A DNA stretch of 64,000 nucleotides, taken from an uncultured Myxococcales bacterium (GTDB lineage: Bacteria > UBA10199 > 2-02-FULL-44-16 > JAAZCA01). The first letter of the stretch is position 1. Each line of letters opens with the position of its first letter. Where the stretch lies: NCBI GenBank assembly GCA_964480565.1, contig CAYZSU010000002.1:3367-67366 (forward strand), written 5' to 3'. Made by a program: the position numbers and the translations under genes. The notes beneath the pieces were generated by a model that saw only the letters and a program-made list of their open reading frames with translations, had not been told where the DNA came from and did not search any database. Below are positions 7,137 to 54,686 of the stretch, piece by piece.

Positions 7137-7228
7137 AGTCATCTCCTCCCAAAGTATTACTATGCAGTTGTTACTTATTATTGTTATCGCACTTTTCAAC
7201 CAAAAAGTTGCTAATTTTTTTAATTATT

Positions 7229-9420: not shown

Positions 9421-9435
9421 GACGACCTCATTAGT

Positions 9436-10819: not shown

Positions 10820-10891
10820 GATTTTCCCCTTTCCTTTTCCCTTAAAGGTCCAAAGCTCACAATGTAAGCCTTAAAAAAGCGTATTTTGTAT

Positions 10892-12118: not shown

Positions 12119-12195
12119 GTTCTTCTCCCCTCAGACTCATCCTTCTACATATATTTAACGTCTATTTTCTCTATATAGTTAATAATTTTTTTTAT

Positions 12196-12987: not shown

Positions 12988-12999
12988 TTATTCATCTCT

Positions 13000-13929: not shown

Positions 13930-14079
13930 ATTTCTTACTGATTAGAAATGCCCTACGGTTGCTAAGTGCCAGTCACGTTTATACCTGAAACCTTTAGCAA
14001 TTCTATAGAGGCTCAAACAATCTGAATATTTTTAAACACTTCCTAAAAACAAAAAATGACAATTATTACAATCAATGCA

Positions 14080-15003: not shown

Positions 15004-15062
15004 ATGTATGACTTCTTCCTGTTGGCGTTCAAAACGCGCTTTTTCACGTGCACTAAATGCGC

Positions 15063-16451: not shown

Positions 16452-16541
16452 TCAAATTATAATTACCCCTTAAACATTAAGGGTTTTGGGTATATAGTTA
16501 TCTAATGGCTAATCCTGTATTCATCAAGGATAAAGCTCCTT

Positions 16542-18769: not shown

Positions 18770-18771
18770 AA

Positions 18772-20151: not shown

Positions 20152-20157
20152 ATAATT

Positions 20158-22669: not shown

Positions 22670-24156
22670 ATATATTTTTCCACAATCTTAACATCATCGA
22701 AATAAATGCGCTCAGTTCCTAAAAGTTGATAATCCTCATGCCCTTTACCTGCAATTAAAAGAACATCATTGCTACGAAGATCTGAAATACTATGTGCAAT
22801 GGCATCTTCACGATCGAGAATAATATCATAGCGAGCCACAGAATTATTTTTATCTTTAAGCGCTTGAATGCCCATGACAATATCATCGATAATAGCACTT
22901 GGATTTTCTGTCCGCGGATTATCATTGGTGATAATAACATGATCTGCCAATGTAACCGCACTTGCACCCATGAGCGGACGCTTTACTTTATCGCGATCCC
23001 CACCACAGCCAAAAACAACAATCAAACGCCCTGAACGACTAGCAGCTATTTTCTGTAAATCAGTCAGCACATTATCCAATGCATCGGATGTATGCGCATA
23101 ATCCACAAAAATAAGTGCATTTTTATTATTTGATATGGATTCGAGTCGACCTGGCGCAGAATAAATAGACGTAAATGCCGCAAGCATATCACTTAATGAC
23201 CAACCAAAACCAAGCCCCACAGAAATTGCAGCCAACACATTACGCACATTAAATTGGCCATATAAGTTCGTATGGCAGATACCGCATTCATCAAATGCAT
23301 GAACCATAAATGACAATCCATTTTCTGTCTCATAGATATCACTGGCATAGCACGCACATTGATTGGATAGTCCATAAGAAATAATACGAGAGGTACACAT
23401 ATCACTTAATTGCCGACCATAGGGATCATCGTAATTAATTACTGCAAACGCATTCTCCTTCTTAGTATTGCTTAAATAATCAGTAAACAACTTGGCTTTA
23501 CTTAAAAAATAATCATCCATGTTTAAATGATAGTCCAGGTGCTCCGGTGTTAAATTTGTAAATACCGCACAGTCAAATTCACAACCCATCACACGATATT
23601 GTTTTAATGAATGCGAACTTACTTCCATGGCACATAAATCTACTTTTTTCTCAGTTAATGTATGCAATACAGACTGCAACTTAATGGATTGCGGTGTTGT
23701 ATGGGATGCAGACTCACTATACCCCTTACATCGATAGGCAATTGTTCCAATAACACCGGGGTTAAAACCGCAGGCATTTGCTAGTTTTTCCAATAAATAG
23801 GTAATGGTTGTTTTTCCATTTGTCCCTGTAATACCTGCTATTTTCATAGCCATTGATGGGCAATCATAATATGCAGCCGCCATCAAACCCATGGTAACAG
23901 CGACATCATCGACACATAACCATGCAATATCATCACGATCAATCGGTATATTACTGATGATACATGCTGCACCTTTGGCTATTGCGTCCTCAATATAATT
24001 ATTTCCATTCAATTGATTACCTGAAATTGCAAAAAAACAATCCCCCGCTTTAACAAGCCGCGAGTCCAAACAAAGTCCGGATATTTCAGTATCCAAGATA
24101 TGTTTAGGACCATTCATACAGTGCAATAACTTAAGTAATTTCACGACAGCCTCCAC
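22666..24156 (-). CDS. murE: UDP-N-acetylmuramoyl-L-alanyl-D-glutamate--2,6-diaminopimelate ligase
   Basis: AGITGTNGKTT P-loop. Mur ligase C-terminal domain. Confidence 0.9.
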   Translation of the reverse strand: MEAVVKLLKLLHCMNGPKHILDTEISGLCLDSRLVKAGDCFFAISGNQLNGNNYIEDAIAKGAACIISNIPIDRDDIAWLCVDDVAVTMGLMAAAYYDCPSMAMKIAGITGTNGKTTITYLLEKLANACGFNPGVIGTIAYRCKGYSESASHTTPQSIKLQSVLHTLTEKKVDLCAMEVSSHSLKQYRVMGCEFDCAVFTNLTPEHLDYHLNMDDYFLSKAKLFTDYLSNTKKENAFAVINYDDPYGRQLSDMCTSRIISYGLSNQCACYASDIYETENGLSFMVHAFDECGICHTNLYGQFNVRNVLAAISVGLGFGWSLSDMLAAFTSIYSAPGRLESISNNKNALIFVDYAHTSDALDNVLTDLQKIAASRSGRLIVVFGCGGDRDKVKRPLMGASAVTLADHVIITNDNPRTENPSAIIDDIVMGIQALKDKNNSVARYDIILDREDAIAHSISDLRSNDVLLIAGKGHEDYQLLGTERIYFDDVKIVEKYI

Positions 24157-26198
24157 TACAATAATGATTTAAACATTACTTTGCATATTCGCCCTGAGGG
24201 TATAATGCTACCTGGCACAGGATCCTGGTGATATGCCAAACCACTGCCTTCAAACTCCCATACAATATCCATATCCGCAGACAATGATAAAATTGACTTC
24301 ATTGTCATTCCCGTTAAATTTGGAATGCGCCACAAGCCATCTTTATCTTTTTTAAAATATTTTTTCTTTACTTGAGCAGCATCTGCAACTTTTAACTGAT
24401 CCGCGTCATTAATCGACCACAGCCCAACCACATCATTCTTTGGTTTTGGCGGTGGCAATTGTCTAATCGCGTCATCAGACATTGCAGTCAATGTTCCAGG
24501 CACTTTCAGATAGTGAAGTGTTGATTCCGTTATTTCTCGAAATACAGGCGCTGCGACTTGCCCCCCATAATAATGACGTCCGCTAGGCTCGTCCAACCCT
24601 ACATATACTGCGATCAATGGATTACTTGCAGGCGCAAACCCCACAAATGACGAGTGATATTTGCCAACCGCATATCCACCCACTTTGTGATCTGCTTTTT
24701 GTGCAGTACCTGTTTTTCCAGCCACATCATATTCCATACTTGCAGCTAAAGTACCTGTTCCACCTGCAGATACAACACCCTCTAATATAGCACGCATTGT
24801 TTTGGATGTATGTCGACTAATCGGATAACTCACAATTGTTGGTGTATTAATTGTTCGCACAGAATCATCGCCCATAACAACTTCCTTAACAAGATACGGT
24901 TTCAGTAATTTTCCTCCATTGGCAATAGCTGAAAAAGCCATCACCATCTGCAGCGGCGTTGCTGCAATACCCTGTCCAAATGCAATTGTCGCATATTGCA
25001 ATACAGACCATTTATTTGGTTTTGATAAAATACCCGATGATTCACCAGGCAAATCAATGCTTGTTTTTGAGCCAAAACCAAATGCTCGAATTGACTCATA
25101 AAGCAAATCCCTGCCCATTTTATTTTCAATTTTATATGTTCCAATATTGCTGGACACTTTAATGATCTCAGATACTCCCAAATCGCCATAGGGATGAGTA
25201 TCTTTAACAATATGATCTGCGATTTGAATCTTGCCATTTTCACAATTAAATTCATCATCCAATGTTATAATGTCCCTATCCAATGCAGATGCAACGACAA
25301 TCACTTTAAATGTTGAGCCAGGCTCATAGGCATTAACAACCGCACGGTTTGTCCAATGCGATAATGGGTACTTAGAGTAATGATTTGGATTAAACATAGG
25401 ATAACTTGCCATAGCAAGAATCTCCCCTGTATTTACATTAACAACAATAGCTGTTCCATCCTTGGCATCAGATGATTCAACAGCTTTAAGCAATTCCCGT
25501 TCCACAATATACTGCAGTGTTTTATCAATTGTTAATACAATATCCGATATATTAATAGATTGTATATCTGTCGGAGATAAGTATAAATACCCTCTTGCAT
25601 CGCGCTTTAAATTGCCATAACTCAACTGCATTGCCAGAACATCATTATAGGATAATTCAATACCACCGAGCGGCTTTGAGTCATAACCCACAGCGCCTAA
25701 TACAGATCCTGCAAGAAGCCCACTGGGATATTGACGTTTACTCTCATCCATCAAATTAATACCAGGAATATTCAATGATTTAATACGCATTGCCAGATCT
25801 TCATCAATCCGACGCTTGACCCATACAAATTTACGCTTACTTGAAAAACGATCCAATAGTGTTCGTCGTTCTACATCCAGTAAATCTGATAATTTTTGTG
25901 CAGCCTCTACGGGTGTTTTTAATTTTGATGGATTGGCGTATACAGACTTAACTTTAATATCAATGGCCAATTCACGCCGTTCTACATCCAAAATACGCCC
26001 GCGCAAACTGCTCGTACGAACAGCTGTTTTATATTGCCGAAGGGCCACTTCATCCAACTGATTGCTATTGGTTAAACGAAAAAATGCCGCACGGCAAAAG
26101 AGCGCTCCCAGGCAAAATGCAATAACACCACCCACCGTAAAAATGCGTCTGGCAGTTTTTACTTCCTCATTATGTTCCTCTAAACGATATCGTGGCAT
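24156..26198 (-). CDS. ftsI: Penicillin-binding protein 3 (FtsI) with C-terminal PASTA domain
   Basis: Transpeptidase STFK, SSN and KTGT motifs. C-terminal ~60 aa (IPNLTGMTMKSILSL...GSIIPSGRICKVMFKS) is PASTA-like. Confidence 0.9.
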   Translation of the reverse strand: MPRYRLEEHNEEVKTARRIFTVGGVIAFCLGALFCRAAFFRLTNSNQLDEVALRQYKTAVRTSSLRGRILDVERRELAIDIKVKSVYANPSKLKTPVEAAQKLSDLLDVERRTLLDRFSSKRKFVWVKRRIDEDLAMRIKSLNIPGINLMDESKRQYPSGLLAGSVLGAVGYDSKPLGGIELSYNDVLAMQLSYGNLKRDARGYLYLSPTDIQSINISDIVLTIDKTLQYIVERELLKAVESSDAKDGTAIVVNVNTGEILAMASYPMFNPNHYSKYPLSHWTNRAVVNAYEPGSTFKVIVVASALDRDIITLDDEFNCENGKIQIADHIVKDTHPYGDLGVSEIIKVSSNIGTYKIENKMGRDLLYESIRAFGFGSKTSIDLPGESSGILSKPNKWSVLQYATIAFGQGIAATPLQMVMAFSAIANGGKLLKPYLVKEVVMGDDSVRTINTPTIVSYPISRHTSKTMRAILEGVVSAGGTGTLAASMEYDVAGKTGTAQKADHKVGGYAVGKYHSSFVGFAPASNPLIAVYVGLDEPSGRHYYGGQVAAPVFREITESTLHYLKVPGTLTAMSDDAIRQLPPPKPKNDVVGLWSINDADQLKVADAAQVKKKYFKKDKDGLWRIPNLTGMTMKSILSLSADMDIVWEFEGSGLAYHQDPVPGSIIPSGRICKVMFKSLL

Positions 26199-26201
26199 TG
26201 A

Positions 26202-26585
26202 TCAGTTTATCTTTCCTTTTTTCTCAACATTTGTTTTGACGTATACAATTTCATCACCCAAAGGCAGACGCATATAATAATGTTTCTTTGCAATTTTCTC
26301 TAATCGCTCTGGTGATTTTAATTCCGCTACTTTCGCCTGTAATTTATTTTTTTGCTCAGATAATTCATGCACTTCTTTTCTAAGCTGACTAACACCATAA
26401 CCCAACTGAATCATCTGAATTCGCATCCAAACAAAGAGCATGGCAATACTCACAGCAACAATAATTAAACTCACTACTTGGCGAATATGTTTGCGACGTT
26501 TAGCCAGATTTTTTTGTGCAACCGGCTGTTTTCGCACAACACTAAATGATGAATACCCAGTACTTGAACGACCAACATCCATCAT
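26202..26585 (-). CDS. ftsL: Cell division protein FtsL
   Basis: Small bitopic protein with a coiled-coil region (QLRKEVHELSEQKNKLQAKVAEL). Position between rsmH and ftsI. Confidence 0.7.
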   Translation of the reverse strand: MMDVGRSSTGYSSFSVVRKQPVAQKNLAKRRKHIRQVVSLIIVAVSIAMLFVWMRIQMIQLGYGVSQLRKEVHELSEQKNKLQAKVAELKSPERLEKIAKKHYYMRLPLGDEIVYVKTNVEKKGKIN

Positions 26586-27469
26586 ACACCCCTTACCAAC
26601 ACTCGCATCTTTGCACTACGCGATCTAGGATTTTGAGCAATCTCATCATCACCTGCACAAATAATTTTTTTATATGCCAAATGATAGTCTTCATCCTTAG
26701 CCAATCGTTTAAATGTATGCTTTACCAGTCGATCTTCCAATGAATGATAGCTAATCATAATCATTTTACCACTCACTGCTAACAACTTTGGAGCTGTATT
26801 TAGAAGTATATTTATCTGCGCTAATTCCTGATTAACTTCAATACGAATAGCCTGGAATGTACGTGTTGCAGGATGAATCCGACCATAGCGCATCTTCGGT
26901 GGATAGCATGCTGCAATAATTTGAGATAATACCAATGTACTATCAATTGGACGCGCCTTACAGATGGCACGTGCAATACGCCTAGCAAATCGGTCCTGCC
27001 CATAGTCTTTAATGATAATAGCCAGCGCATCCTCTTCCATTTCATTAATCACAATACCTGCATGATATGCATCCGATTGATTCATACGCATATCCAGCGG
27101 TGCATCTTTTTGAAAACTAAATCCACGCTTTGCAGTATCCAATTGAAAGCTAGACACACCAAAATCTGCCAATATCCCTACTATATTTAATTGTCTAAGA
27201 TCAGGTAATGATGACACATCTTTCATATCTGCATGAATGGCATTAAATCGATTGCCAAAACATTTAAGACGTTCAGATGCTGCTATAATTGCATCCATAT
27301 CCCTATCAATCCCAACAATATTAATACCTGGCATTGACTCCAGCAATGCATGACTATGCCCGCCACCACCCAATGTCACATCCAATATACTACCCGCCAT
27401 ATTTATGGATGAAAATTCGTCTAGCACTTCCTTGCACAGTACCGGCACATGATAGGATTCGTCGATCAC
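26582..27469 (-). CDS. rsmH: 16S rRNA (cytosine1402-N4)-methyltransferase RsmH/MraW
   Basis: HVPVLCKEVL N-terminus; SAM-binding DVTLGGGGHS. Confidence 0.9.
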   Translation of the reverse strand: MIDESYHVPVLCKEVLDEFSSINMAGSILDVTLGGGGHSHALLESMPGINIVGIDRDMDAIIAASERLKCFGNRFNAIHADMKDVSSLPDLRQLNIVGILADFGVSSFQLDTAKRGFSFQKDAPLDMRMNQSDAYHAGIVINEMEEDALAIIIKDYGQDRFARRIARAICKARPIDSTLVLSQIIAACYPPKMRYGRIHPATRTFQAIRIEVNQELAQINILLNTAPKLLAVSGKMIMISYHSLEDRLVKHTFKRLAKDEDYHLAYKKIICAGDDEIAQNPRSRSAKMRVLVRGV

Positions 27470-31155: not shown

Positions 31156-31665
31156 ATGACACGTACTTGGCTTATCGCACTCACAGCACTTATCACAACT
31201 TGCATGGTATCACCTCTTGTATATGCATTAAATGACTGCTACCATTCAGGGGAACAATTACTCATACATGATAATAGTACAGGACATGTTCGTTATGAAC
31301 GTACTGAGACAATTTATCAGCAACCTGATAATTTTTTACTCGCCACAATTGAAGATGAACGTATTATTTTCACACCCATTGTTGAAGTTTTCAAAAATGA
31401 GCTTACCAATCGTTTACTTCGCATTGAATTATCCACTGGCCATAGTTTGATGATCACAGAATCCCATCCAGTATGGGTGAATGACACATTTATCACAGCT
31501 GGCACATTAAGCATCGATGATACATTAACCAGTATTACTGGCGAATCCGTAAGCATCATGGATGTCAAGGTGATGAATTATGATGGATTTGTATATAATT
31601 TTGCTATCAATGGTTCAGGCATACAAATCAGCGATGGCATCCGCCTAGGCGGATCAGACATATAA
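31156..31665 (+). CDS. Small secreted protein consisting essentially of a Hint (Hedgehog/intein / bacterial intein-like) domain
   Basis: Strong AGGAG Shine-Dalgarno sequence. Signal peptide MTRTWLIALTALITTCMVSPLVYA. Hint-like blocks: LTGHSLMITESHPVWV, AGTLSIDDTLTSITGESVSI and the terminal VYNF. Confidence 0.45.
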   Translation: MTRTWLIALTALITTCMVSPLVYALNDCYHSGEQLLIHDNSTGHVRYERTETIYQQPDNFLLATIEDERIIFTPIVEVFKNELTNRLLRIELSTGHSLMITESHPVWVNDTFITAGTLSIDDTLTSITGESVSIMDVKVMNYDGFVYNFAINGSGIQISDGIRLGGSDI

Positions 31666-32130: not shown

Positions 32131-32217
32131 GGGGAGGTGGCCGAGTGGCTGAAGGCGGCACCCTGCTAAGGTGTTATACGGGAGACCGTATCGAGGGTTC
32201 AAATCCCTCCCTCTCCG
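32131..32217 (+). tRNA. tRNA-Ser (anticodon GCU), long variable arm. CCA not encoded.
   Basis: Folded by hand. Acceptor stem GGGGAGG/CCTCTCC (one G-U pair). D-arm GCCGAGTGGCTGAAGGC. Anticodon loop CTGCTAA. T-arm GAGGGTTCAAATCCCTC. Discriminator G. Confidence 0.9.
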
Positions 32218-32225
32218 CAACAAAA

Positions 32226-34786: not shown

Positions 34787-35476
34787 TTAATCTTTTTTCA
34801 TAATGAATAAATAATTAAATCCGCGCAAATAAAAATTGCCCTTCACCGCCTCATCCAAAAAATTCTTTCGTTTGAGTTTTTTATTATGGCGCACCACAGA
34901 AACAATATCGAGTGCCCGGAAGTATTTTTGTAATATTCCAAACAACTCAAAACCAATAGGTACAAACCCTTTTTTATTTTGATAGGTGTCGGACACATAC
35001 AATGCCATACAGCGCTTAGGCCGCATGATACGGTGAATTTCAGCAATCACCCGATGCATGGATTTAAAATAGTCCACCTCAAATGCAGATAGTTTACCAA
35101 TACATCGCTTATCATCGGAATAATCAATATGCGTGGAATATGGCGGATCGATAAATACAAAATCCGCTTTTTCATCCTCTAAAGGTAGCTTTCTTGCATC
35201 GGATCGAAAAATATCCTTTCGCGTGGGATTTAAGTCATAGCCCAATGCGCGCCGATTTAAGTCCCTAGCCACATCCAATGTCGTCCCGCTGCCACACATG
35301 GGATCCACGATTAAATCTTTTTTTCTTGTATAACGATTTAACAAGTTCCAAATAATATAGGATGGTGTTGCTCCTTCATAGTCTTTACTACCCTGTATTT
35401 CCCCACCATAATGTTGAGAAGGATAATCCCACAAAGTGGTACCATGCATGGGCACATTGTTTCTAGTATTATTCAT
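34787..35476 (-). CDS. Small SAM-dependent nucleic-acid methyltransferase (N6-adenine / N2-guanine amino-methyltransferase family; UPF0020-like)
   Basis: Motif I LIVDPMCGSGTTLDVA and motif IV FVFIDPPYS. No adjacent restriction endonuclease. Confidence 0.55.
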   Translation of the reverse strand: MNNTRNNVPMHGTTLWDYPSQHYGGEIQGSKDYEGATPSYIIWNLLNRYTRKKDLIVDPMCGSGTTLDVARDLNRRALGYDLNPTRKDIFRSDARKLPLEDEKADFVFIDPPYSTHIDYSDDKRCIGKLSAFEVDYFKSMHRVIAEIHRIMRPKRCMALYVSDTYQNKKGFVPIGFELFGILQKYFRALDIVSVVRHNKKLKRKNFLDEAVKGNFYLRGFNYLFIMKKD

Positions 35477-44102: not shown

Positions 44103-46700
44103 TTACCCCTTCCATTTCACATATTCAGGAAATACATGATGAAACAATGCATCGTTTGGCACAATTCGAACACCCGTTTCCTGCAATCCTGATCCTTTTA
44201 TATCTAGCTCAATATTATATTTCGCAACTTTATCATCATATGTTTCAACATATGTCATGGGCATATATTTATAGTCATTTAGACCTGCTCCATACTGATA
44301 AAACAGCTCTACATTAAATAAAGACATATCTGTATCACCTGTAAACACATAGCTATCAATCACAAGATGACCCTCTGTATGCAAACTCTTTTCATCCAAA
44401 ATTGGGAAAAAATCACGAATATGAACATCTGACCAATAGCGATCAATCAGTTCTTTATGCGCGAGTAAACGCTTTAATAGCTCCCCCTTATTATGGGTAA
44501 TGCGACTAGCCATATCCATCTGTGGCAAGTAAAAGCGATACAAATAATCTCGCACTGCGCGATGCATATTAAAACCCGACGATACTGTGGCAATAGATCG
44601 CTTCATCATGGATATCCACTTTGTCGGCACATCACCTTCACCACGATCATAGTATGTGGATGTAATATCATTTTCCAATAATTCGTAAATTTGATTGGCT
44701 TCCGCTTCATCAGCAATGTCATTATTGCAACACTCTTCACCCGCATTAATTGCCCAACCATTACTACCATCATAGGCTTCTGGCCACCAGCCATCAAGCA
44801 CACTAAAGTTCAATACACCATTAATACCGGCCTTCATCCCAGATGTACCGCTTGCTTCCATGGGTTTACGTGGATTATTCAACCATACATCCACACCCTG
44901 AACTAAATGACGACCAATATTAATATCATAATCTTCTACAAAAACGACATGATTCTCTACTGGATAGTCATTGATAAATTGAAAAATACGTTTAATTAAA
45001 TCCTTGCCAATACCATCTGCAGGATGTGCTTTCCCCGCAAATACAAGTTGCACAGGCCGTTCAGGGTTAGTTAGGATAGCGGCCAATCGCTCTGGGTCCA
45101 TAAAAATTAAATTCGCCCGTTTATATGCGGCAAAACGCCTTGCAAAACCAATGGTTAAATATTCTGGATTCAAGATACTACTGATATCCATTCGTTTGCC
45201 CTTACCAATGCCACGGTGCTTCGCCATTTTACGAAGTCGCCTACGAATAAATGATACATTTTGTTCTTTTCGACGTCGATGCGCATTCCATATTTCATTA
45301 TCTGGAATTGTATCCACCTTTTCCCATAATGAATCACTTTCCGCATTATGTAGATAATCAGGCCCCACATAGCGATCAAATAATTCAGCAAGCTGCAAAC
45401 TCAGCCAACTTTGAATATGCACACCATTGGTCACGCCTTCAATTGGATACTCCGTAGTATGGCGATTGGGATATAAGCCCTTCCACATACCCCGCGATAC
45501 TTCGGCATGCAATTCAGATACGGCATTGGCTTTTCGTGAAAATTGAAGCGCCAATGCAGATAATGAAAATGAGGCATCCTTAAAGACAATTTTCTTTGTC
45601 TTTTTATCATCTGAAACCATCTCTATTTTTTCTGTATTAACTTTTCCAAAGCATAATAAATCGTTCATGGAGATATGCAGCTCATTCGCAACAGGAGCTA
45701 AGTAATCTTGAATCAATTCATCATCAAAACTTTCATTTCCAGCAATTACCGGCGTATGCGTGGTAAACACAGTGCTGTATTGAATAGTCAGCTTTGCTTC
45801 TTCCATGGAATAACCTTTTTTGGTTAAACTCAATAATCGCTCAAAAATACTAAATGCCGTATGCCCTTCATTTAAATGATAGACTTTAGGAGTAATACCC
45901 AATGCGTTCATCGCAATGATACTACCACGCCCCACCAAGAGCTCCTGCTCTAAGCGCACACGACGATCCGAATCATACAACCGTGATGTAATATAACGAT
46001 GTTCAGGCTTATTTTTTTGAATATTCGTATCCAGTAAATACAGTGGCACTCGACCTACCTGAATCTTCCAGACCTTTGCATATATAATATCTTTTTTAAG
46101 AGGCACTTCAATTATAAGTGGCGTTTGATCGTCATTGAATACCTCTGAAATCGCCCGAAGATACCATTGTTGATCTTGATATTCCTCTACCTGAGTACCG
46201 TCTACAGAAATTTGCTGACCAAAATACCCCACGCCATACTTCAATCCAAAGCTCACCATATTACAACCAATATCAGAAGCTGCCTTTAAATGGTCCCCAG
46301 CTAAAATTCCTAAACCGCCAGAATATCCTGGAATCGATTCATGCAATCCATACTCCATACATAAATAGACGATCACATCATCGGATGAAAATGGTTTTGT
46401 TTCGCCATTTTCTTTGTATACACCTTCAAAGTTCATATAGCGTTTAAATTTATCATAGACGCTATTAACCTCATATATAAATCCTTCATCCTGAGCTATT
46501 TCATTTAAGCGCATTTCACCCACATTAAAGAGTACATCGATGGGACTATGATTGTGCTCCCGAAACAACTGCGGATTAATACGGTGAAACAATCGCTGAG
46601 CATCTTTATCCCAGCAAGACCATACATTCATTGCAATTTCGCACAATGGATTTAGTGAATCAGGTATGGTGGGCTTTACAAAAAAAGAGCATAAATCCAT
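44103..46700 (-). CDS. glgP: Alpha-glucan family phosphorylase (GT35, with DUF3417-type N-terminus)
   Basis: PLP-site block ASGTSGMKAGINGVLNFSVLDGWW. GT35 length and conserved blocks. Confidence 0.85.
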   Translation of the reverse strand: MDLCSFFVKPTIPDSLNPLCEIAMNVWSCWDKDAQRLFHRINPQLFREHNHSPIDVLFNVGEMRLNEIAQDEGFIYEVNSVYDKFKRYMNFEGVYKENGETKPFSSDDVIVYLCMEYGLHESIPGYSGGLGILAGDHLKAASDIGCNMVSFGLKYGVGYFGQQISVDGTQVEEYQDQQWYLRAISEVFNDDQTPLIIEVPLKKDIIYAKVWKIQVGRVPLYLLDTNIQKNKPEHRYITSRLYDSDRRVRLEQELLVGRGSIIAMNALGITPKVYHLNEGHTAFSIFERLLSLTKKGYSMEEAKLTIQYSTVFTTHTPVIAGNESFDDELIQDYLAPVANELHISMNDLLCFGKVNTEKIEMVSDDKKTKKIVFKDASFSLSALALQFSRKANAVSELHAEVSRGMWKGLYPNRHTTEYPIEGVTNGVHIQSWLSLQLAELFDRYVGPDYLHNAESDSLWEKVDTIPDNEIWNAHRRRKEQNVSFIRRRLRKMAKHRGIGKGKRMDISSILNPEYLTIGFARRFAAYKRANLIFMDPERLAAILTNPERPVQLVFAGKAHPADGIGKDLIKRIFQFINDYPVENHVVFVEDYDINIGRHLVQGVDVWLNNPRKPMEASGTSGMKAGINGVLNFSVLDGWWPEAYDGSNGWAINAGEECCNNDIADEAEANQIYELLENDITSTYYDRGEGDVPTKWISMMKRSIATVSSGFNMHRAVRDYLYRFYLPQMDMASRITHNKGELLKRLLAHKELIDRYWSDVHIRDFFPILDEKSLHTEGHLVIDSYVFTGDTDMSLFNVELFYQYGAGLNDYKYMPMTYVETYDDKVAKYNIELDIKGSGLQETGVRIVPNDALFHHVFPEYVKWKG

Positions 46701-46741
46701 AACAATCTCCCCTGTTATTTTTTTAAATTATATCTATATAA

Positions 46742-47935
46742 TTATAAGCGCTCGCGCAAATAGGCCACTGCATTCATGAAGAACATATAGGCTTGATGTG
46801 GTGTTTGATATGGTGAAAAGTATTTATGCACATCGCCATCTTGAAAATATTTTGTACACATATAATAGTAATGATCGGATGTGGATAGTCGACGCGCTGA
46901 TTCCATTAAATCGGTACGTCCTTTTTCTTTAATTTCACGAAATACATCATAAAATGATTCAATGGCATTATGCTGTAAATCATTTTCCAACCATGCCGAT
47001 AAATCACGTTCTGTATCTGCCCATGATACTGGATAGGGATAAGATAGCACTTCAGGCGCATAATTAAGAATATCAATAGCATCCGAAGGCCAAGCAAATG
47101 ACATATGCGGGTATTTAAATACCTGTTTGGGTAAATCACGCATAAAATCAAAAATACCTGTTTCTGCCCATTGATGCTCACCAAAGGTTTCATAATCCAT
47201 AAATAAGTTAGCAAATAAATGTTTATCCCCATGCTCAACCAAACTTAATTTAGATAGCCATTGTGAAAATTTATCCGCAGTTAACGGAAATTCTGGCCAC
47301 GCACGATTTGAAAATCGAAATGCAATATCATCTGCTAAACTATAATATTTTAACATCAGCAGCATATGATGATTTTGTGCCATATACGCATATAATGGTG
47401 AACGCCAGCCTAAAATTTTCTCCACACCTTCTGCTAAAATGACTTTAAAATCAGCCTCTTCCCACACTAAATTTGAAATTGCATCCTGATAAATCAGCTC
47501 TGTATTTCGAAATACAACAGGATCATATCCGAATTCATCCTGCATCAATTGTTTGTGCATACGGACTTGTGTTAAAAATTCTTCTTGATCATAAAAAAAT
47601 GACAATGAATGATAATATGTTTCACCAATAAATTCCACACATCCTGTACGTGCCAATTCTTTGAAAGATTCTAGCACTTCTGGATAATATTTTCGAAATT
47701 GCTCAATCGCCACACCTGTCACTGAAAATGCGATTTTTACACGCCCTTCATAACGATCGATGAGCTCTTTTAATAATTTATTAGTAGGTAAATAGCACTT
47801 ATCACCAACTTTTCGAACCACAGAAGCATTTAGCTTCTCATCGAATAAATCTGTATCTCGTCCAATATCCAATACATTTAAATGTCTGACTCGATAGGGT
47901 TGGTGAACTTGAAAGTAAAAGACTATATGGAGCAT
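46742..47935 (-). CDS. Glycoside hydrolase family 57 protein
   Basis: N-terminal FQVHQPYR signature of GH57. Confidence 0.7.
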   Translation of the reverse strand: MLHIVFYFQVHQPYRVRHLNVLDIGRDTDLFDEKLNASVVRKVGDKCYLPTNKLLKELIDRYEGRVKIAFSVTGVAIEQFRKYYPEVLESFKELARTGCVEFIGETYYHSLSFFYDQEEFLTQVRMHKQLMQDEFGYDPVVFRNTELIYQDAISNLVWEEADFKVILAEGVEKILGWRSPLYAYMAQNHHMLLMLKYYSLADDIAFRFSNRAWPEFPLTADKFSQWLSKLSLVEHGDKHLFANLFMDYETFGEHQWAETGIFDFMRDLPKQVFKYPHMSFAWPSDAIDILNYAPEVLSYPYPVSWADTERDLSAWLENDLQHNAIESFYDVFREIKEKGRTDLMESARRLSTSDHYYYMCTKYFQDGDVHKYFSPYQTPHQAYMFFMNAVAYLRERL

Positions 47936-49233
47936 ATGGTTTCCTTGTATACATCAATGGCTTTCACTGCAGCATCATACCAACCAATGGACAATGCTTC
48001 TTGTTGACCTGCTAGTGCAACGCTTTCTCTTTGTTTTGGATTTTCTAAAAGTTCTAAAATAACATTAGTCATCCGATCAATATCCCAGAAATCGATTTTA
48101 TAGGCATTGTGAATCACTTCTGACACACCGGACTGTTTTGACACAACAGCCACAGCGCCATAGGCCATAGCCTCTAAAGGAACGATCCCAAAAGGCTCTG
48201 AAACAGATGGCATAATAAAAATATCCGTTCCTGATAAAATCTCTTCCACTTGATCCCGATTTAAAAACCCACTAAACAGAAATCGATCTTTCAATCGCTT
48301 TGATGCTGAATTGTGTACCATACGATTAAACATATCACCACTACCTGCCATGACAAAACGCACATTGGGATATTTATCAAGCACGCGTCTGGCAACTTCT
48401 AAGAAATAGTCCGGTCCTTTTTGAATGGTGACTCGACCTAAAAAGAGCACCATGAGATCTTTAAATACTTTTCGCCGTTTTTTTCGAAGCGGTGACATCG
48501 AATAGGCATTATATACCACACGCACTTTTTTAGGATGAACCACATATCGATCCATAATCATTCGTGATGTATATTGTGACACTGAAATCACACGATCCGC
48601 AGAGGTTAGGCCCGCATATTCAATTTTATGAATTCGATCATCCCCCTCGCCACCAGAGCGATCAAATTCTGTGGCATGAATATGGGAAATCAATGGGATT
48701 TCCAATAGATCCTTTAACGGAACTGCGGCCGGATATGTCAACCAATCATGTGTATGAATCAAATCATACCCCAACAAGTTGTGCGCATTTTTCAATACTC
48801 GCTCTGTAAAAAATCGTACCTGCTTAAAAATATCCTCTTCGCCATATATATGTTCACTTAAATCATCGACCGCTTCCACTTTCCAATTAATTCGTTTATT
48901 TAAAATGCGATCTACTTTTTTTCGAATTTGTTGGGCAGGCGTCACATATGAATCAGGATACTGTTTATAGCCTAAATTAATCATGCGTTCCTGAACATCT
49001 TCACTCCAATTTTCTTCACAAATAGATTCCATTCGCTTGTCCATCGCAACATATGGCAAGTTATCCACATCATCCGGTGTACGTAATTGAAAAATGACAT
49101 TTTTTTCCGTGGGCAGTAGCATATCCACTTCCACGCCCAACTCCAAAAGTGCTCGGATTAATCCATAACATGCCATCCCCAATCCACCGGAAATAAATGG
49201 CGGAAATTCCCATGTTAGTAGCAGTATTTTCAT
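47923..49233 (-). CDS. Glycosyltransferase family 4 (GT-B), alpha-glucan-synthase-like
   Basis: MKILLLTWEFPPFISGGLG N-terminus and a C-terminal E-x7-E-like GT4 region. Confidence 0.7.
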   Translation of the reverse strand: MKILLLTWEFPPFISGGLGMACYGLIRALLELGVEVDMLLPTEKNVIFQLRTPDDVDNLPYVAMDKRMESICEENWSEDVQERMINLGYKQYPDSYVTPAQQIRKKVDRILNKRINWKVEAVDDLSEHIYGEEDIFKQVRFFTERVLKNAHNLLGYDLIHTHDWLTYPAAVPLKDLLEIPLISHIHATEFDRSGGEGDDRIHKIEYAGLTSADRVISVSQYTSRMIMDRYVVHPKKVRVVYNAYSMSPLRKKRRKVFKDLMVLFLGRVTIQKGPDYFLEVARRVLDKYPNVRFVMAGSGDMFNRMVHNSASKRLKDRFLFSGFLNRDQVEEILSGTDIFIMPSVSEPFGIVPLEAMAYGAVAVVSKQSGVSEVIHNAYKIDFWDIDRMTNVILELLENPKQRESVALAGQQEALSIGWYDAAVKAIDVYKETICSI

Positions 49234-49246
49234 GAATTCCCCTTAC

Positions 49247-51253
49247 CTATACATCCAATAGTAGATGTTCAATTTCCAATAGTGCAAATACATTTCTCGC
49301 ATATGCGCTACAACCTTTAGGCATGTATGGATCAATGCCATCCCATAGTTCTGCAACACTTGCCATCTCACCCTTTAAAAACCCATCCCGAAATACCCAT
49401 ACATATTCAGATAGGCGACGAATAATCAATTCTCGTTCCATTGTATTGGATAGCGCTTTTAATGCGAGCTTTACAAAGGGCAACATTAAAAATGGCCATA
49501 CAGTTCCTTGATGACATGCCAAGTTGCGTTGCCGCTCTCCACCCACATAGCGTTGCTTAAATGACGCATGATTTGGTTCTAAACTGCGAAGGCCATATGG
49601 CGTTAATAATCGCTCTTCTGCCAATTGCCAAATACGCTGCAGTTGATCTTTTTCTAAAAAATCAAACGGCAATGATGCTGCAATCACTGCATTTGGCCGA
49701 ATATCCCAAATCACACCTGTATTATCTATTCGATCCGCTAAGTAGTCATCTCCCATAAATCGCTGTAAGGACTGACGAACTTGATCACGAAGTTTTACAA
49801 TATCATCATATGTGGCATGAAGTGCATTGGATTGAAAGTCGGATAGTGTTAATGCGTCCGCCATCTCAATAAATGCACATAATCCATTATACCACAATGC
49901 ATTCACTTCAACAGGCTTGCCGCTACGCGGTGTCACTGGTTTTCCATTAATATCTGCATCCATCCATGTTAAAGCAAGATCATTATTGCGAATGCAGAGC
50001 AATCCATCCTCATCACAGAAAAATGGCAATGTCGCATCCAAATAATAATGAAGTACAATATCAACCATTGTTTGAAATAAAGCGCTATTTTTCAATTCAA
50101 ACGCGTGACTATGAATCAAAAACCATAGAGAAGCATCAATACTATTATAATTCCGTACTAAATTCTCTGATGCCAATTCATGTGGAATCAAACCATTTTT
50201 CTGTAAAGCCGCATATTTCTTTAATATCTGATGTGCAACCACTTTACCATTGGACGTATATTTCAAGCCACTCATACAGGTCATTGTATTCCGACCACTA
50301 AATGAATACCATGGATATCCCTTGGCAATATCACTCTTATTTACAATAAAATCATTGGCTGCAACCTCAAGCAATTGATAATAATCGGTTCGCTTAAAGG
50401 GCTCATTGTGCATAGCATTATGCGTTTCCAAATACGCATGCGCAGATGTGTTCTCAGGATGATCTTCCGGAGCAATCAATGATTTATAATGATGCTGCGC
50501 TTTTGCCACTTCAACCGCACAGTCTGTGACAGATGTATCAGAAAATAGCATCCACCGACTGGTATGTGGCTCCAAATGAATCATAATACGTACCGGTGAA
50601 ATTAAATCTTCAACAGATTGATAGCCGCGAGCAGCCTCAGTTGGGTAATAGATGGATTCGTAAATAGCCTTATCTTCCCATAGCTGCCCATCTTCAATAT
50701 ATCCAAATGCATTTATTTGATTATCTTCACGGCTTATTTGAAATGAATTTTCCTGAGCCTCATACGACAACTGTGTCCGATGCCATGTACCAGATAAGTT
50801 AATATCATAATGATTGCGCAAACTAAACTTTGGCCGGACAACTAAATCAATCGCTTGATCGCCAAGATTATTATATTTAACAACCACCGCATTTTTTCCC
50901 GGCACCATAAACAATTCACGTGAAATCATTAGATCCGGCATTGGCGGTGTTGTTGAATACACGGTACACGGATAGGGTCGCAACCATGTTTTTAATATTT
51001 GTGCATAGCCATGTGGAAAAATACAATTTGCATAATGGTTGGAATCCAAATGAAAGTTACTTCCTTCCAACTCAACCAACTCTTCCATACAGGATAAAAT
51101 ATGATGTTTATTTTCACTGTCCGTCGCTGCAATCAATAAACCATTATACTTTCGTTTATTGAGCATATTCCCAAAGCCAAGCGCATACCCGCCAATACCA
51201 TTGGTCAGCAGCCATTCTCTATCAGAAATTTTCTGAAAAGAACCACTTTTCAT
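49247..51253 (-). CDS. Amylo-alpha-1,6-glucosidase / glycogen debranching enzyme (archaeal type). Start ATG at 51253; the alternative ATG at 51271 runs through the poly-C/G tract.
   Basis: GDE N-terminal block EWLLTNGIGGYALG...RKYNGLL. C-terminal (alpha/alpha)6 barrel blocks. Confidence 0.8.
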   Translation of the reverse strand: MKSGSFQKISDREWLLTNGIGGYALGFGNMLNKRKYNGLLIAATDSENKHHILSCMEELVELEGSNFHLDSNHYANCIFPHGYAQILKTWLRPYPCTVYSTTPPMPDLMISRELFMVPGKNAVVVKYNNLGDQAIDLVVRPKFSLRNHYDINLSGTWHRTQLSYEAQENSFQISREDNQINAFGYIEDGQLWEDKAIYESIYYPTEAARGYQSVEDLISPVRIMIHLEPHTSRWMLFSDTSVTDCAVEVAKAQHHYKSLIAPEDHPENTSAHAYLETHNAMHNEPFKRTDYYQLLEVAANDFIVNKSDIAKGYPWYSFSGRNTMTCMSGLKYTSNGKVVAHQILKKYAALQKNGLIPHELASENLVRNYNSIDASLWFLIHSHAFELKNSALFQTMVDIVLHYYLDATLPFFCDEDGLLCIRNNDLALTWMDADINGKPVTPRSGKPVEVNALWYNGLCAFIEMADALTLSDFQSNALHATYDDIVKLRDQVRQSLQRFMGDDYLADRIDNTGVIWDIRPNAVIAASLPFDFLEKDQLQRIWQLAEERLLTPYGLRSLEPNHASFKQRYVGGERQRNLACHQGTVWPFLMLPFVKLALKALSNTMERELIIRRLSEYVWVFRDGFLKGEMASVAELWDGIDPYMPKGCSAYARNVFALLEIEHLLLDV

Positions 51254-51491
51254 ATTCCCCCCCCCGTACACCTCTTCATATGCAAATCACATAATTGAAA
51301 TAAAATATCATTAGCTTTAATTTTTAATCGAGTAATTATGATACTTAATTTGGATATTAATATCAGTACTTGATCATGAAAACAATATAGAAACACACAC
51401 TTATAACTTTTTTTTCAATTGAGTCACTTTTGTTTTGCGTCATTGTTCAAGAACGTGTACAAGACTTTTAAATAATTCATGGAGGAGAAAT

Positions 51492-51845
51492 ATGGCAAAG
51501 AAAATCGTAAAAAAAGTAGCTAAAAAAACAACAGCAAAAACAAAGAAAACAACGACACCAACAAAACGTACAACCAAAGCCAGCACGACTAAAACTGCTA
51601 CGAGCAAAACAGCTGTCACAAAACGGACACCCACAAAGCGAACAGTTAAAGCATCTACAAAGAATCAACGTCGCTTCACACTAACCGAAATTAATGCCTT
51701 AACACAAGTTCGTGCATTTGAGTTATACCAAAGCCGCACCAATACAGATGGCAATGAAAACTCTGATTGGCAAAGAGCTCAAGAACAAATCTGCATAGAA
51801 TTTGGAATTGATCTTAACACTGTATTAAATAAAAATTTCAAGTAA
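51492..51845 (+). CDS. Histone H1-like Lys/Thr-rich DNA-binding protein with C-terminal DUF2934-like motif
   Basis: GGAGGAG Shine-Dalgarno sequence. KK(V/T)AKKTTAKTKKTTTPTKRT... low-complexity basic region. C-terminal VRAFELYQSRTNTDGNENSDWQRAQEQI. Confidence 0.6.
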   Translation: MAKKIVKKVAKKTTAKTKKTTTPTKRTTKASTTKTATSKTAVTKRTPTKRTVKASTKNQRRFTLTEINALTQVRAFELYQSRTNTDGNENSDWQRAQEQICIEFGIDLNTVLNKNFK

Positions 51846-51873: not shown

Positions 51874-52350
51874 TTAACACCTAAGCAATGCTTGGGTGTT
51901 TTTTCGTTTACCCACAAAAAACTGTTTTAACAACTGACCACACTCTTTTGCCATTACACCACCTGTAATATCCACCTGATGATTGAGACGTTTATCCGTC
52001 AACACATTGTATAATGACTCAACAGCACCTGCTTTTGGATCATAACAACCAAATACAATACGAGATATACGTGATTGATAAATAGCACCCGCACACATTA
52101 CGCACGGTTCACATGTCACAATCAATTCAACACCATCCAGTCGCCATGACTTTATTTTTTTTGAAACATCGCTGATTAAAAGTATCTCCGCATGCCCTAT
52201 TGGATTTTGATCACATTCACGACGATTATGTGCACGTGCAATAATTTGATTGTCTTTCACCGCAATGGCCCCAATGGGCACTTCATCCATTGCCATTGCT
52301 TTTTTGGCTTCATCAATGGCTTGCTTCATTAAAGCTTGACTAGCTATCAT
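51874..52350 (-). CDS. tadA: tRNA-specific adenosine deaminase
   Basis: Zinc-binding HAEILLI and CEPCVMCAGAI motifs. Confidence 0.85.
   Translation of the reverse strand: MIASQALMKQAIDEAKKAMAMDEVPIGAIAVKDNQIIARAHNRRECDQNPIGHAEILLISDVSKKIKSWRLDGVELIVTCEPCVMCAGAIYQSRISRIVFGCYDPKAGAVESLYNVLTDKRLNHQVDITGGVMAKECGQLLKQFFVGKRKNTQALLRC
51877..51905 (+). terminator. Rho-independent terminator of the histone-like gene, overlapping the last codons of convergent tadA
   Basis: ACACCTAAGCA-atg-CTTGGGTGT followed by TTTTTT. Confidence 0.6.
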
Positions 52351-52422: not shown

Positions 52423-53394
52423 ATGCTACTACAATATATTCCTTTAAAAAATTTGAATGTTGCTGATGACAGCTACCGAATTACCTTTGCACCTGAATTG
52501 GATAACTTAAAACGTTCTATCAAGTCCGTAGGCGTTATTCAACCAATCAATATCAGGCACACAGCTGAAGGTACATTCCAAATCGTCACTGGGTATAAAC
52601 GCGTGCTTGTCATGCAAGAGATTGAACGTCAATCAGTACCAGCGCTCATTCACGAACCTGGAGATTTATCGCCCACACAAGCATTTTTGTGGAACCTTCA
52701 TGACAATGCAATCACACGCTCATTAAATCTAGTTGAAAAAAGCATTGCACTCAATAAGCTTCAGCAATTTTATTCCATTGCTGAAGATGATTTGGCCAAA
52801 CAATTCTTACCATTGCTTGGCATTGAGCCAAGCTATAAAATTTTACATCAGTTATGCGCGCTAGATCAACTTATTGAGCCACTCAAAACTCATATTGTTG
52901 AATCACAAATGGCATTATCATCTGCAGCTCGTATTGCTGACTTCTCACCAACGACGCAACAAGCACTATTAGCAGTGCTCTTACATATTAGACCCTCTAC
53001 AAGCAAGCTAAATGAATTACTATCCTTACTCCGTGAAATTTCAGCTCGCGATGGAATTACAGTGGAAGACATTTTAAGTCGTTATAAATTACTACAAGTA
53101 GTGGCCAATCCAGAGGCCACATCTGGTGAAAAAGTGGGCGCGCTCAGACAAGCATTGCGCGGCATTCGACTTCCACAACTCACACAACGCCAAAAGGAAT
53201 TGGCCAATCTCATACAAAATCTAGAATTACCTGATTCCGCAAAAGTAGTGGCAGACCCATACTTTGAAAACAATAATATGAAATTGGAATATCGATTTTC
53301 CAATCCAAAGGAATTGGATAGTTTAGTTAAAAAGATTCAAGATGCATTTTCAAAGCAAAAATGGCAGCAAATATTTGAATGGTATCGCAATTAA
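52423..53394 (+). CDS. ParB/Srx-fold (ParB-like) DNA-binding protein; no ParA partner in the window
   Basis: ParB N-domain pattern IPLKNL...YRIT...SIKSVGVIQPINIR...FQIVTGYKRVLVMQEI, followed by an HTH-like region. The arginine patch is GYKRV rather than GERRxRA. Confidence 0.5.
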   Translation: MLLQYIPLKNLNVADDSYRITFAPELDNLKRSIKSVGVIQPINIRHTAEGTFQIVTGYKRVLVMQEIERQSVPALIHEPGDLSPTQAFLWNLHDNAITRSLNLVEKSIALNKLQQFYSIAEDDLAKQFLPLLGIEPSYKILHQLCALDQLIEPLKTHIVESQMALSSAARIADFSPTTQQALLAVLLHIRPSTSKLNELLSLLREISARDGITVEDILSRYKLLQVVANPEATSGEKVGALRQALRGIRLPQLTQRQKELANLIQNLELPDSAKVVADPYFENNNMKLEYRFSNPKELDSLVKKIQDAFSKQKWQQIFEWYRN

Positions 53395-53507
53395 TAATAA
53401 GTTCAATAAAGTATTATTCTAACTGATACAATACTCAATTGAATTTATTCCCAACTCAGCAGATGGGTCATTTTTTAGCCCCCATAATGCGTCAGGGGAT
53501 AACAAGT

Positions 53508-54686
53508 ATGCATTCCCAAACCTCATCATTTTCTGTACAACCCTTAAAAACGCGACACCGTAAAAAGAAAACACTATTTCCTTTTTTACCAGAGCAAGTT
53601 TGGGTGGATCGAAATATAGTATCACATCCACAAACCATCCGTATTCTCAATCAATTACAAGATGCAGAAATAGACATCGTTGATAATATTCGTTCATTAA
53701 AAACACCCGCAAGCCTCAATATAGCCAAAAAACAACTTGTTCTCACTGAACACAAAGGGCATGCCTTTAAAGAATGCCAGGGTATCACTCCCAACCACCT
53801 GTGCTGTAATTACCGCACATTGGACTTAGTATCTGGCTGTCCCATGGATTGCAGTTATTGCATTTTGCAATCCTATCTAGCAAACAACCCCATCACCACT
53901 GTATATGTGAATTTGGAACAAATTCTCGACCAAGTGGCAAGCTTTCTAAAGTCAAACAAGGGTACCCATTTTCGTATTGGCACAGGTGAATTAGGAGATA
54001 GCCTCGCATTAGATCCAATCATCGATTATGCGAGTATTTTAATTCCCTTTTTTGCACAGCAAGACAATGCTGTATTAGAATTAAAGACAAAAACAAATTT
54101 TGTCGATCATATCCTAAAATTACGCCATCGCAATCGAACCATTATTGCATGGTCGATAAATACACCTGATTATATTCAAACAGAAGAAAGTCATACTGCC
54201 AGCTTAGAAAAACGGATTGAAGCGGCACAAAAAGTCATTCAAGCAGGATATCGTGTGGCATTTCACTTTGACCCCATTTTTATACTTAAGGACATTGATA
54301 CTGAGATGGCGGCATATCAAGATGTCATTGCCACTATATTCGAGCATATTGATCCACAGTATATTGCCTGGATCAGCTTAGGGCTACTTCGCTATCCAAA
54401 AAATTTACCTCAAATCGCAGAAAAACGATTTCCAAATACCCGTATTTATACGGGCGAACTCGTACCATCGGATTCAAAAGTCAGGTATTTGCGATTTATT
54501 CGTGAACACGCATATAAATTACTTTGGAATACCTTTCAAAAATATATTACCACCAACAAACTATACCTTTGCATGGAAACTCACACAGTTTGGCAAAAAG
54601 TAGATACATCCATTAACAGCAATGAATGCATTGATAAACGACTGTGCACACAGGAAAATGTTTTGTTTGATTTTAAAAATTTTTAG
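53508..54686 (+). CDS. Spore-photoproduct-lyase-family radical SAM protein (SplB-like)
   Basis: CxxxCxxC cluster VSGCPMDCSYCILQSY. Blocks YVNLEQILDQ and KRIEAAQKVIQAGYRVAFHFDPIF align closely with Bacillus SplB. The alternative start at 53439 is less likely. Confidence 0.65.
   Translation: MHSQTSSFSVQPLKTRHRKKKTLFPFLPEQVWVDRNIVSHPQTIRILNQLQDAEIDIVDNIRSLKTPASLNIAKKQLVLTEHKGHAFKECQGITPNHLCCNYRTLDLVSGCPMDCSYCILQSYLANNPITTVYVNLEQILDQVASFLKSNKGTHFRIGTGELGDSLALDPIIDYASILIPFFAQQDNAVLELKTKTNFVDHILKLRHRNRTIIAWSINTPDYIQTEESHTASLEKRIEAAQKVIQAGYRVAFHFDPIFILKDIDTEMAAYQDVIATIFEHIDPQYIAWISLGLLRYPKNLPQIAEKRFPNTRIYTGELVPSDSKVRYLRFIREHAYKLLWNTFQKYITTNKLYLCMETHTVWQKVDTSINSNECIDKRLCTQENVLFDFKNF

Follow-up and report, generated by a model that had tools for sequence, protein, structure and literature searches.

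The forward-strand gene at 51492..51845 encodes a protein, P0001, which is a new and extreme member of the known but uncharacterised family DUF2934, and its linkage to a glycogen operon is a new observation. According to the reading that we prefer, and to which we give somewhat less than an even chance, P0001 would be a stand-alone, efficiently translated, cytoplasmic protein in which a cationic, disordered tail grown by duplication is joined to a conserved three-helix head, with the tail binding polyanions and expression being linked to that of glycogen genes. DUF2934 is a large family without assigned function (at least 1643 clusters by one profile search), the usual layout of which is a cationic disordered tail followed by a tiny helical head. 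One clade of this family stays beside a glycogen operon across deep divergence, another directly follows der/engA, and these adjacencies are the first genomic-context leads to a role of DUF2934. The finding reveals neither a bacterial histone nor a developmental nucleoid system. The term window is used here for the whole 64-kb stretch of DNA that was analysed.

The gene and its expression signals

The coding sequence starts with the ATG at 51492, ends with the TAA at 51843-51845 and specifies 117 amino acids plus stop (MAKKIVKKVAKKTTAKTKKTTTPTKRTTKASTTKTATSKTAVTKRTPTKRTVKASTKNQRRFTLTEINALTQVRAFELYQSRTNTDGNENSDWQRAQEQICIEFGIDLNTVLNKNFK). An identical P0001 sequence is present in an independent JGI contig (L001), which agrees with the window throughout 6.3 kb, and the GC content of the gene as well as its choice of Lys and Thr codons fit the rest of the window. 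The open reading frame is a real gene in the correct frame. From codon 2 up to the C-terminal domain, the sequence offers no in-frame start codon (ATG, GTG or TTG), so that the tail is translated whenever the domain is, and the sole alternative start is an upstream TTG without a Shine-Dalgarno sequence. Because of this lack of other usable starts, the basic region cannot be a mis-called frame, an outcome which the first-pass annotation had named as fatal to its own proposal and which is also contradicted by the homology of the C-terminus and by the syntenic orthologs described below.

The Shine-Dalgarno sequence GGAGGAG (51481..51488, plus strand) is located 6 nt before the ATG and forms a duplex of -9.3 kcal/mol with the anti-Shine-Dalgarno sequence, which is rank 4 among the 45 ORFs of the window, alongside the rpsF and L25 genes. 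On the other side of the gene, an intrinsic terminator (51876..51910, plus strand) consists of an 11-bp stem and a 3-nt loop followed by TTTTTTCGTTT. Its hairpin (51876-51900, -14.8 kcal/mol, with a U-run after it) lies 30 nt past the stop codon and inside the last approximately eight codons at the 3' end of tadA (51874..52350, minus strand). This convergent gene encodes a tRNA adenosine(34) deaminase, as judged from a match to the NCBIfam model NF008113 (TadA) with 153.3 bits at a cut-off of 150. The first-pass annotation had described a strong Shine-Dalgarno sequence and an own terminator overlapping the end of tadA, and both descriptions proved to be accurate. It had also suggested that the protein is highly expressed, for which the strength of the Shine-Dalgarno sequence is the sole support.

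A divergent intergenic region of 238 bp (51254..51491) separates the gene for P0001 from the glycogen operon on the minus strand, which is led by the gene for a debranching enzyme (GDE). Both promoters are presumably situated within this region, and a sigma-70 scan of it returned a single weak site on the minus strand (51366-51338).

A divergent DUF2934 domain forms the C-terminal head

Residues 64-115 (51681..51836, plus strand) are predicted to form a module of three helices (64-81, 89-104 and 108-115), which AF2 models with pLDDT values of 87-95 and of which the first two are linked by a Gly-containing loop. The DUF2934 core covers about residues 66-102 and the net charge of the head is about -2. 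The Pfam profile PF11154 matches residues 73-100 on its positions 8-35 of 37 with an E-value of 0.0018 and 18.3 bits, and P0001 thereby falls below the gathering threshold of 22 bits. Among its clear relatives, P0022 (21.5 bits) and P0025 (19.1 bits) also stay below this threshold and P0020 (22.4 bits) just passes it.

When the C-terminal 63 amino acids were searched exhaustively with phmmer against 1.84 billion representative proteins, 12 matches with E ≤ 1e-3 were obtained, the query included. One of these, P0002 (1883 aa), a protein with 'DGG.WTDWQ' repeats that is matched in 10 short stretches, was set aside as spurious. P0003-P0012 are matched with E-values of 5e-7 to 7.5e-4 in the whole library; all nine of P0003, P0004 and P0006-P0012 pass the DUF2934 gathering threshold with 30-92 bits, and P0005 contains six DUF2934 repeats (131.9 bits). 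A word-indexed homolog search with the single P0001 sequence returned the query itself as sole match, and a subfamily profile that includes P0001 retrieves at least 1643 proteins (clusters), nearly all of which are annotated with PF11154 and which comprise proteins named by NCBI from Acidobacteria-type and Pseudomonadota MAGs. In the 71-sequence family alignment the invariant residues R82, G87, D92, W93 and A96 are all present in P0001, as are the near-invariant residues A75, E77, L78 and Y79, the sole replacement being a Q in place of E97, which is conserved in at least 90% of the sequences. The sub-threshold Pfam match, the recovery of canonical DUF2934 proteins in the exhaustive search and the presence of the invariant residues together confirm the DUF2934-type C-terminus seen in the first-pass annotation, and by these sequence comparisons the C-terminal module of P0001 is a divergent DUF2934 domain.

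Small DUF2934 proteins, for example P0021, P0010, P0048 and the NCBI MAG entries, have in common with P0001 a core of approximately 37 amino acids with the pattern RA[YF]ELY..R....G....DW..A, including the invariant R, G, D, W and A. Like P0001, they are encoded by small monocistronic genes and possess a single domain, a basic, disordered N-terminal tail rich in Thr, Ser, Ala and Lys, and a short C-terminal extension of the type [EK][ELY]G[ILM]. P0001 differs from the other DUF2934 proteins in its sub-threshold Pfam score, the Q for E97 and the extra C-terminal helix 108-115.

The predicted fold of the head is a generic helical hairpin for which the model has no informative structural neighbor, and neither a recognizable DNA-binding fold nor a carbohydrate-binding one is discernible in P0001. 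PDB sequence searches with P0001 and two family profiles gave no match, which leaves the family without a solved structure for comparison, and PHROGs gave no match either. The first-pass annotation had recommended a search for paralogs, and within the 64-kb window there is none.

The basic tail is partly built by duplication

The tail (residues 1-60; 51492..51671, plus strand) starts with the motif MAKKIVKKVAKK and is acid-free, rich in Thr and Lys and predicted to be disordered. It contains 19 Thr, 17 Lys, 7 Ala and 4 Arg but no Asp or Glu (32% Thr, 28% Lys, 12% Ala, 3% Pro), which amounts to a net charge of +21, and no other six-frame ORF of the window has a comparable acid-free polycationic stretch. 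AF2 places no secondary structure in these residues (pLDDT 50-60), with a 10-sequence and then with the 71-sequence alignment. The low-complexity Lys/Thr/Ala region recognized in the first-pass annotation is therefore present as a Thr/Lys-rich tail, but it ends near residue 60, and the 75 residues attributed to it are about 15 too many, because residues 64-81 already belong to the folded domain as its helix 1. P0001 shares the N-terminal motif M-x-[KR]-K-[IVLA]-[IVLA]-K-K with P0020 and P0021 only.

Two internal repeat copies are found in the tail, residues 20-32 (TTTPTKRTTKAST; 51549..51587, plus strand) and residues 44-56 (KRTPTKRTVKAST; 51621..51659, plus strand), which match each other at 10 of 13 positions. 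A match of this quality was reached by 3 of 2000 composition-preserving shuffles (P about 0.0015), and several synonymous positions differ between the copies. In addition, TRF reports a 21-nt tandem repeat with two copies (KTTAKTK / KTTTPTK) in the tail-coding DNA (51525..51565, plus strand; 80% matches, score 54). To judge from these repeats, the tail of P0001 is partly built by internal duplication.

Tail and head are the usual layout of the family

Among 123 single-domain relatives, the tail preceding the domain measures 46 aa in the median, with a median net charge of +5; the net charge is at least +5 in 81 of them and zero or lower in seven, in a survey drawn from matches to a profile that includes tail columns, which may enrich basic tails. 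No tail in the sample is longer or more basic than that of P0001 (61 aa and +22 with the boundaries used in the survey), and the next most basic tail is that of P0021 with +17. P0021 begins with MIKKIAKKLAKKATTKK, which makes it a near twin of P0001 at the N-terminus, and carries a canonical DUF2934 domain (49.8 bits). Thr/Lys-rich tails of similar style are present in P0021, P0022, P0025, P0031, P0010 and P0015.

A moderately basic, disordered N-terminal tail followed by one DUF2934 domain is thus the usual layout of the family, and P0001 is the extreme of a continuum and no novel fusion. The word 'fused' in the first-pass annotation is misleading, as the same combination is the normal case, with the 81 basic-tailed relatives and the near twin P0021 as examples. 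Tails of the family change fast in length and charge, by way of internal duplication.

The gene keeps its position beside glycogen-metabolism genes

The glycogen operon of the window (44103..51253, minus strand) was assigned with Pfam and NCBIfam and is the conserved neighbor of the gene for P0001, from which it diverges. It comprises the genes for an archaeal-type debranching enzyme (GDE, 49247-51253), a glycogen-synthase-like transferase of the GT4/5 type (47923-49233), a GH57 protein (46742-47935) and an alpha-glucan phosphorylase (44103-46700), all on the minus strand. The combination of a divergent DUF2934 gene with this GDE-GT-GH57-phosphorylase operon occurs in the window and at the loci L031/L032 (P0010), L034/L038 (P0020) and L046/L047 (P0048), with GDE identities of 47-54% among the four syntenic lineages. 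At the P0010 locus, the small gene has the identical position beside the same four-gene operon in an organism with a GC content of 56% and a GDE that is 48% identical. P0010 is also the best single-domain match in the whole library of 1.84 billion proteins, which supports its orthology with P0001. The third case (L034) came from a metagenome scan with GDE and is the same protein as P0020 at L038, and the fourth (L046/L047, P0048) is from an NCBI MAG labelled Pseudomonadota.

On its far side, the small ORF is flanked by a different gene in each of the four loci, namely tadA, a gene for a hypothetical protein, GDPD or TauE, and Shine-Dalgarno sequences of the GGAGG type precede all four small genes (window, L031, L034, L046). 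tadA is not a conserved neighbor of the small gene, and none of 29 tadA loci from a collection of genome contigs without close relatives of the host has a DUF2934 gene nearby, the best tadA match among these loci (56%) being from a MAG labelled Slackia. An adjacency to another glycogen gene was observed for P0021 at L043, where 78 nt separate the small gene from glgC downstream of it, with both on one strand; the glgC fragment of 154 aa matches glucose-1-phosphate adenylyltransferase with an E-value of 6e-76. All three proteins with the N-terminal motif M-x-KK-hh-KK (P0001, P0020 and P0021) therefore adjoin glycogen genes. Two more distant copies of the operon, L035 and L036, do not include the small gene, and a comparison of the four divergent intergenic regions for a shared operator, inverted repeat or specific motif yielded A/T-rich k-mers alone. 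These loci show that the clade of P0001 has kept its place beside genes of glycogen metabolism over a deep divergence. One ancestral arrangement, inherited vertically, may underlie the four syntenic cases, as opposed to repeated selection.

In a sister clade, P0022, P0025 and P0015 are encoded downstream of der/engA and have a common C-terminal ending, K[EKS]KY[GN][IM]K. The genes for P0022 and P0025 start 1-4 nt past the stop codon of der, with the Shine-Dalgarno sequence inside der, and that for P0015 follows at a distance of approximately 100 nt. The Der proteins of two of these loci (L044 and L045) are 73% identical. Neither glycogen nor der neighbors were found for P0012, P0027, P0028 and P0031.

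Alternative explanations

It has next to no probability that the ORF is an artefact, be it a wrongly called frame or low-complexity DNA that does not code for protein. Two antisense ORFs of 63-64 aa are open in the A/C-rich sequence as well; their translations, runs rich in V and F, reflect the repeat. This reading is effectively refuted by the homology of the C-terminal domain to a large family of proteins and by the syntenic orthologs in four lineages, and the Shine-Dalgarno sequence and the terminator speak against it too. Very unlikely, although far less so, is the proposal of the first-pass annotation, according to which P0001 is a highly abundant, nucleoid-condensing protein of the H1 or Hc1/Hc2 kind, such as would mark bacteria that have a developmental or compacted-nucleoid stage. 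There is a loose likeness in composition, as the C-terminal tail of H1, Hc1 (HctA), Hc2 (HctB) and the tail of P0001 are all Lys-rich, nearly acid-free and disordered polycations, and the net charge of +21, two TPTK(R) elements in formal agreement with the pattern S/T-P-x-K and a Shine-Dalgarno sequence as strong as those of the ribosomal-protein genes in the window could be quoted in its favor. However, homology to H1, Hc1 or Hc2 had to be rejected: linker-histone, Hc1 and other nucleoid-protein models of Pfam do not match P0001 even at E ≤ 10, and the comparison to PDB chains gave no match and no winged-helix globular domain, the helical DUF2934 module being the sole folded part. Unlike the tails of H1 and the Hc proteins, that of P0001 is rich in Thr (32%, against 12% Ala and 3% Pro) and not in Ala and Pro, it is N-terminal and it is attached to a different folded domain. 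Hc2 is known for an array of pentamer repeats (PMC2848022), whereas no such array is present in P0001, where TRF detects the 21-nt repeat with its two copies and where one 13-aa duplication exists. A family-wide motif of the SPKK or TPTKR type found no support, as 3 of 69 tails contain TP.KR and [ST]P.[KR] shows no enrichment in tails of the family (5 observed, 9.6 expected). Moreover, the tails of the orthologs are much shorter and weaker (+5 to +17), which excludes a strong condensation as what the family has conserved. The host does not fit either: the window carries ftsZ, ftsA, ddl, murB, murG, a gene for a PBP and rsmH, and this full mur/dcw cluster with ftsZ and ftsA means that the host is not a chlamydia. 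With this cluster in the window, with no paralog there and with a family of at least 1643 members that is widespread in ordinary environmental bacteria, the idea that such proteins characterize developmental or compacted-nucleoid bacteria finds no support. According to the preferred reading, P0001 would be neither an H1/Hc1 homolog nor a developmental nucleoid condenser. A search for developmental-cycle genes had been advised, and nothing in the window points to such a cycle apart from one possible hint, a radical SAM gene of the spore-photoproduct-lyase family with a score far under the equivalog cut-off.

Two further explanations start from the genomic neighborhoods. P0001 might regulate the transcription or the translation of the divergent GDE-GT-GH57-phosphorylase operon, or be a tether or organizer of granules with the head at the granule or one of its enzymes and the tail at the nucleoid, which we regard as rather unlikely. 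The divergent pairing is kept in four lineages with GDE identities of 47-54% and unrelated far flanks, the adjacency to glgC at L043 is independent of it, and all three proteins with the M-x-KK-hh-KK motif adjoin glycogen genes. Conserved divergent gene pairs often couple a regulator with its target, as Korbel and colleagues are said to have found in 2004, and AlgP and PhaF could serve as precedents at polyP and PHA granules, respectively. Against this, most of the sampled family members are not located beside glycogen genes, the small gene is missing beside the operon copies L035 and L036, P0001 has no recognizable DNA-binding or carbohydrate-binding fold, the four intergenic regions contain no conserved operator-like motif, and E. 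coli GlgS is unrelated. The stronger version, in which the glycogen-linked clade (P0001, P0010, P0020, P0048 and P0021) would represent a previously unrecognized accessory factor, either a small operon regulator or a granule-to-nucleoid tether, seems still less likely to us. If it were true, the clade would do for glycogen what PhaF does for PHA and AlgP for polyP granules, and this would be the first function for the DUF2934 domain. It is also conceivable, though unlikely, that P0001 is a partner of RNA or of ribosomes and acts as a chaperone, a modulator of translation or a factor of the hibernation type. The position of the genes for P0022, P0025 and P0015 directly downstream of der/engA, the gene of a 50S-assembly GTPase, would agree with this, and so would the cationic disordered region of PhaF, which binds mRNAs and activates translation (PMC12818456). 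However, the linkage to der is not seen in the clade of P0001 itself, and the three der cases include at least one pair of relatives, L044 and L045, with a Der identity of 73%.

Comparison to proteins with cationic tails and a possible mode of action

Pseudomonas AlgP and PhaF are, like P0001, modular proteins with a folded domain and a cationic, intrinsically disordered region. PhaF is encoded among the PHA carbon-storage genes and binds the storage granule, and its position among these genes parallels the linkage of P0001 to the glycogen operon. In AlgP, the cationic region targets both DNA and polyP granules (PMC9239181), and the KPAA region of PhaF binds RNA (PMC12818456). The sequence of P0001 contains no KPAA/AAKP repeats, and unlike AlgP and PhaF it has neither a phasin domain nor the N-terminal domain of AlgP, its tail being N-terminal and Thr-rich. 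Its linkage is with glycogen genes and not with PHA or polyP genes. The order of parts is the same in DdbA from Streptomyces, which consists of an N-terminal H1-like region and a small C-terminal DksA-like domain (PMC3643593); in P0001, the small folded domain behind the basic H1-like region is DUF2934 and not DksA-like.

Another small helical protein with a connection to glycogen is GlgS (ScoR) of E. coli, which comprises 66 aa and has historically been linked to glycogen accumulation. A relationship to P0001 was rejected, since hhalign gave a probability of 0.2% when the 71-sequence family alignment was compared to GlgS of strain MG1655. Furthermore, GlgS differs from P0001 in having no cationic tail and in not being encoded beside glg genes in MG1655.

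According to the reading that we prefer, P0001 would work like other bacterial proteins in which a cationic disordered region is attached to a folded domain, such as AlgP, PhaF and DdbA. Its charge suggests that the tail may bind polyanions electrostatically and without sequence specificity, the likeliest target being nucleic acid, whether DNA or RNA. The head, being conserved, is probably the functional module and might serve self-association or the binding of a partner. The divergent promoter region shared with the glycogen operon could tie expression of P0001 to a carbon-storage or nutrient-limitation program. To judge from the pairing with the glycogen operon, P0001 may be co-expressed with carbon storage or take a direct part in it, and the pairing of the sister clade with der would fit contacts to RNA or ribosomes.

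In the portions of the literature that were accessible, DUF2934 is mentioned in tables alone and a functional study of any member does not appear; no paper citing PF11154 or IPR021327 was found. The tables list a DUF2934 protein in the outer-membrane-vesicle proteome of Chlorobaculum tepidum, another one among the proteins released by Asaia bogorensis and a DUF2934 gene of Sinorhizobium fredii that is induced next to stress genes. Their presence in these proteome and induction data indicates that members of the family are expressed.

Gene contexts of related DUF2934 proteins

The closest match to the N-terminus of the window protein is P0021, a DUF2934 relative encoded at L043:182-430. The gene glgC, encoding glucose-1-phosphate adenylyltransferase (L043:508-969), is located 78 nt downstream of it on the same strand; the source gene call for this glgC had begun at an internal methionine codon (position 766).

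Three further relatives, P0022, P0025 and P0015, constitute a sister clade of DUF2934 proteins with Lys/Thr-rich tails, and their genes (L044:356-595, L045:1563-1787 and L049:805-1011, respectively) are located directly 3' of der/engA. At L044 and L045, the Shine-Dalgarno sequence of the DUF2934 gene lies within the final codons of der and its ATG follows the der stop codon by 1-4 nt. This arrangement suggests that, at these two loci, the DUF2934 gene is translationally coupled to der, which encodes a GTPase of 50S subunit assembly. Another relative, P0028, is encoded immediately after a mutagenesis cassette composed of an imuA-like gene (RecA_N), imuB (IMS) and dnaE2, and the next gene belongs to the HIT family (L041:382-7225 and L042).

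The divergent intergenic region

A run of nine C residues is present on the plus strand at 51257-51265, corresponding to G9 on the coding strand of the gene for the archaeal-type debranching enzyme (GDE). Its position, 4-12 nt before the GDE ATG, is where a Shine-Dalgarno sequence would be expected, and a homopolymer in this position could constitute a slippage-prone translational switch. No variation in the length of this run was seen between the window and a second assembly, the independent and identical contig L001.

The same intergenic region (about 51320-51345) shares the exact 10-mer TTTTTAATCG with that of L031 (about 7222-7245), a locus with the same divergent pairing of a DUF2934 gene and a glycogen operon. 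In both regions, a TATAAT-like element follows the 10-mer, which is separated from the GDE start by about 66-70 nt. The 10-mer was not found in the intergenic region of L034 and is only partial in that of L046, two further loci with this pairing. The shared 10-mer could be a promoter element or could be due to chance.

Other features of the window

At 90% identity, each of the 11 window proteins that were looked up forms a singleton or near-singleton cluster, and the genome of the window was not found in the species-representative genome collection. The lineage of this bacterium is poorly sampled.

The minus strand carries a complete dcw (division and cell wall) cluster at 9491-27469, comprising rsmH, a PBP/FtsI-like gene, mur genes, murG, murB, ddl, ftsA and ftsZ. 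The gene that follows this cluster (7288-9456) encodes an MltD-like lytic transglycosylase of 722 aa that contains numerous LysM repeats.

The window contains a single tRNA gene, tRNA-Ser (GCT) at 32131-32218. Near it are a small ORF (31156-31665) that encodes a pretoxin-HINT domain and a short N6/N4 DNA methylase ORF (34787-35476). These two ORFs may represent a small mobile or polymorphic-toxin remnant.

A radical SAM gene of the spore photoproduct lyase (SPL) family (53439-54686) matches the Pfam SPL model with an E-value of 2.6e-37, and its NCBIfam score of 151.7 bits is far below the 400-bit equivalog cut-off. The adjoining gene (52423-53394) encodes a 323-aa protein, the sole domain of which is a ParB N-terminal domain. 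Both genes occur in a bacterium that possesses FtsZ and outer-membrane-type genes.
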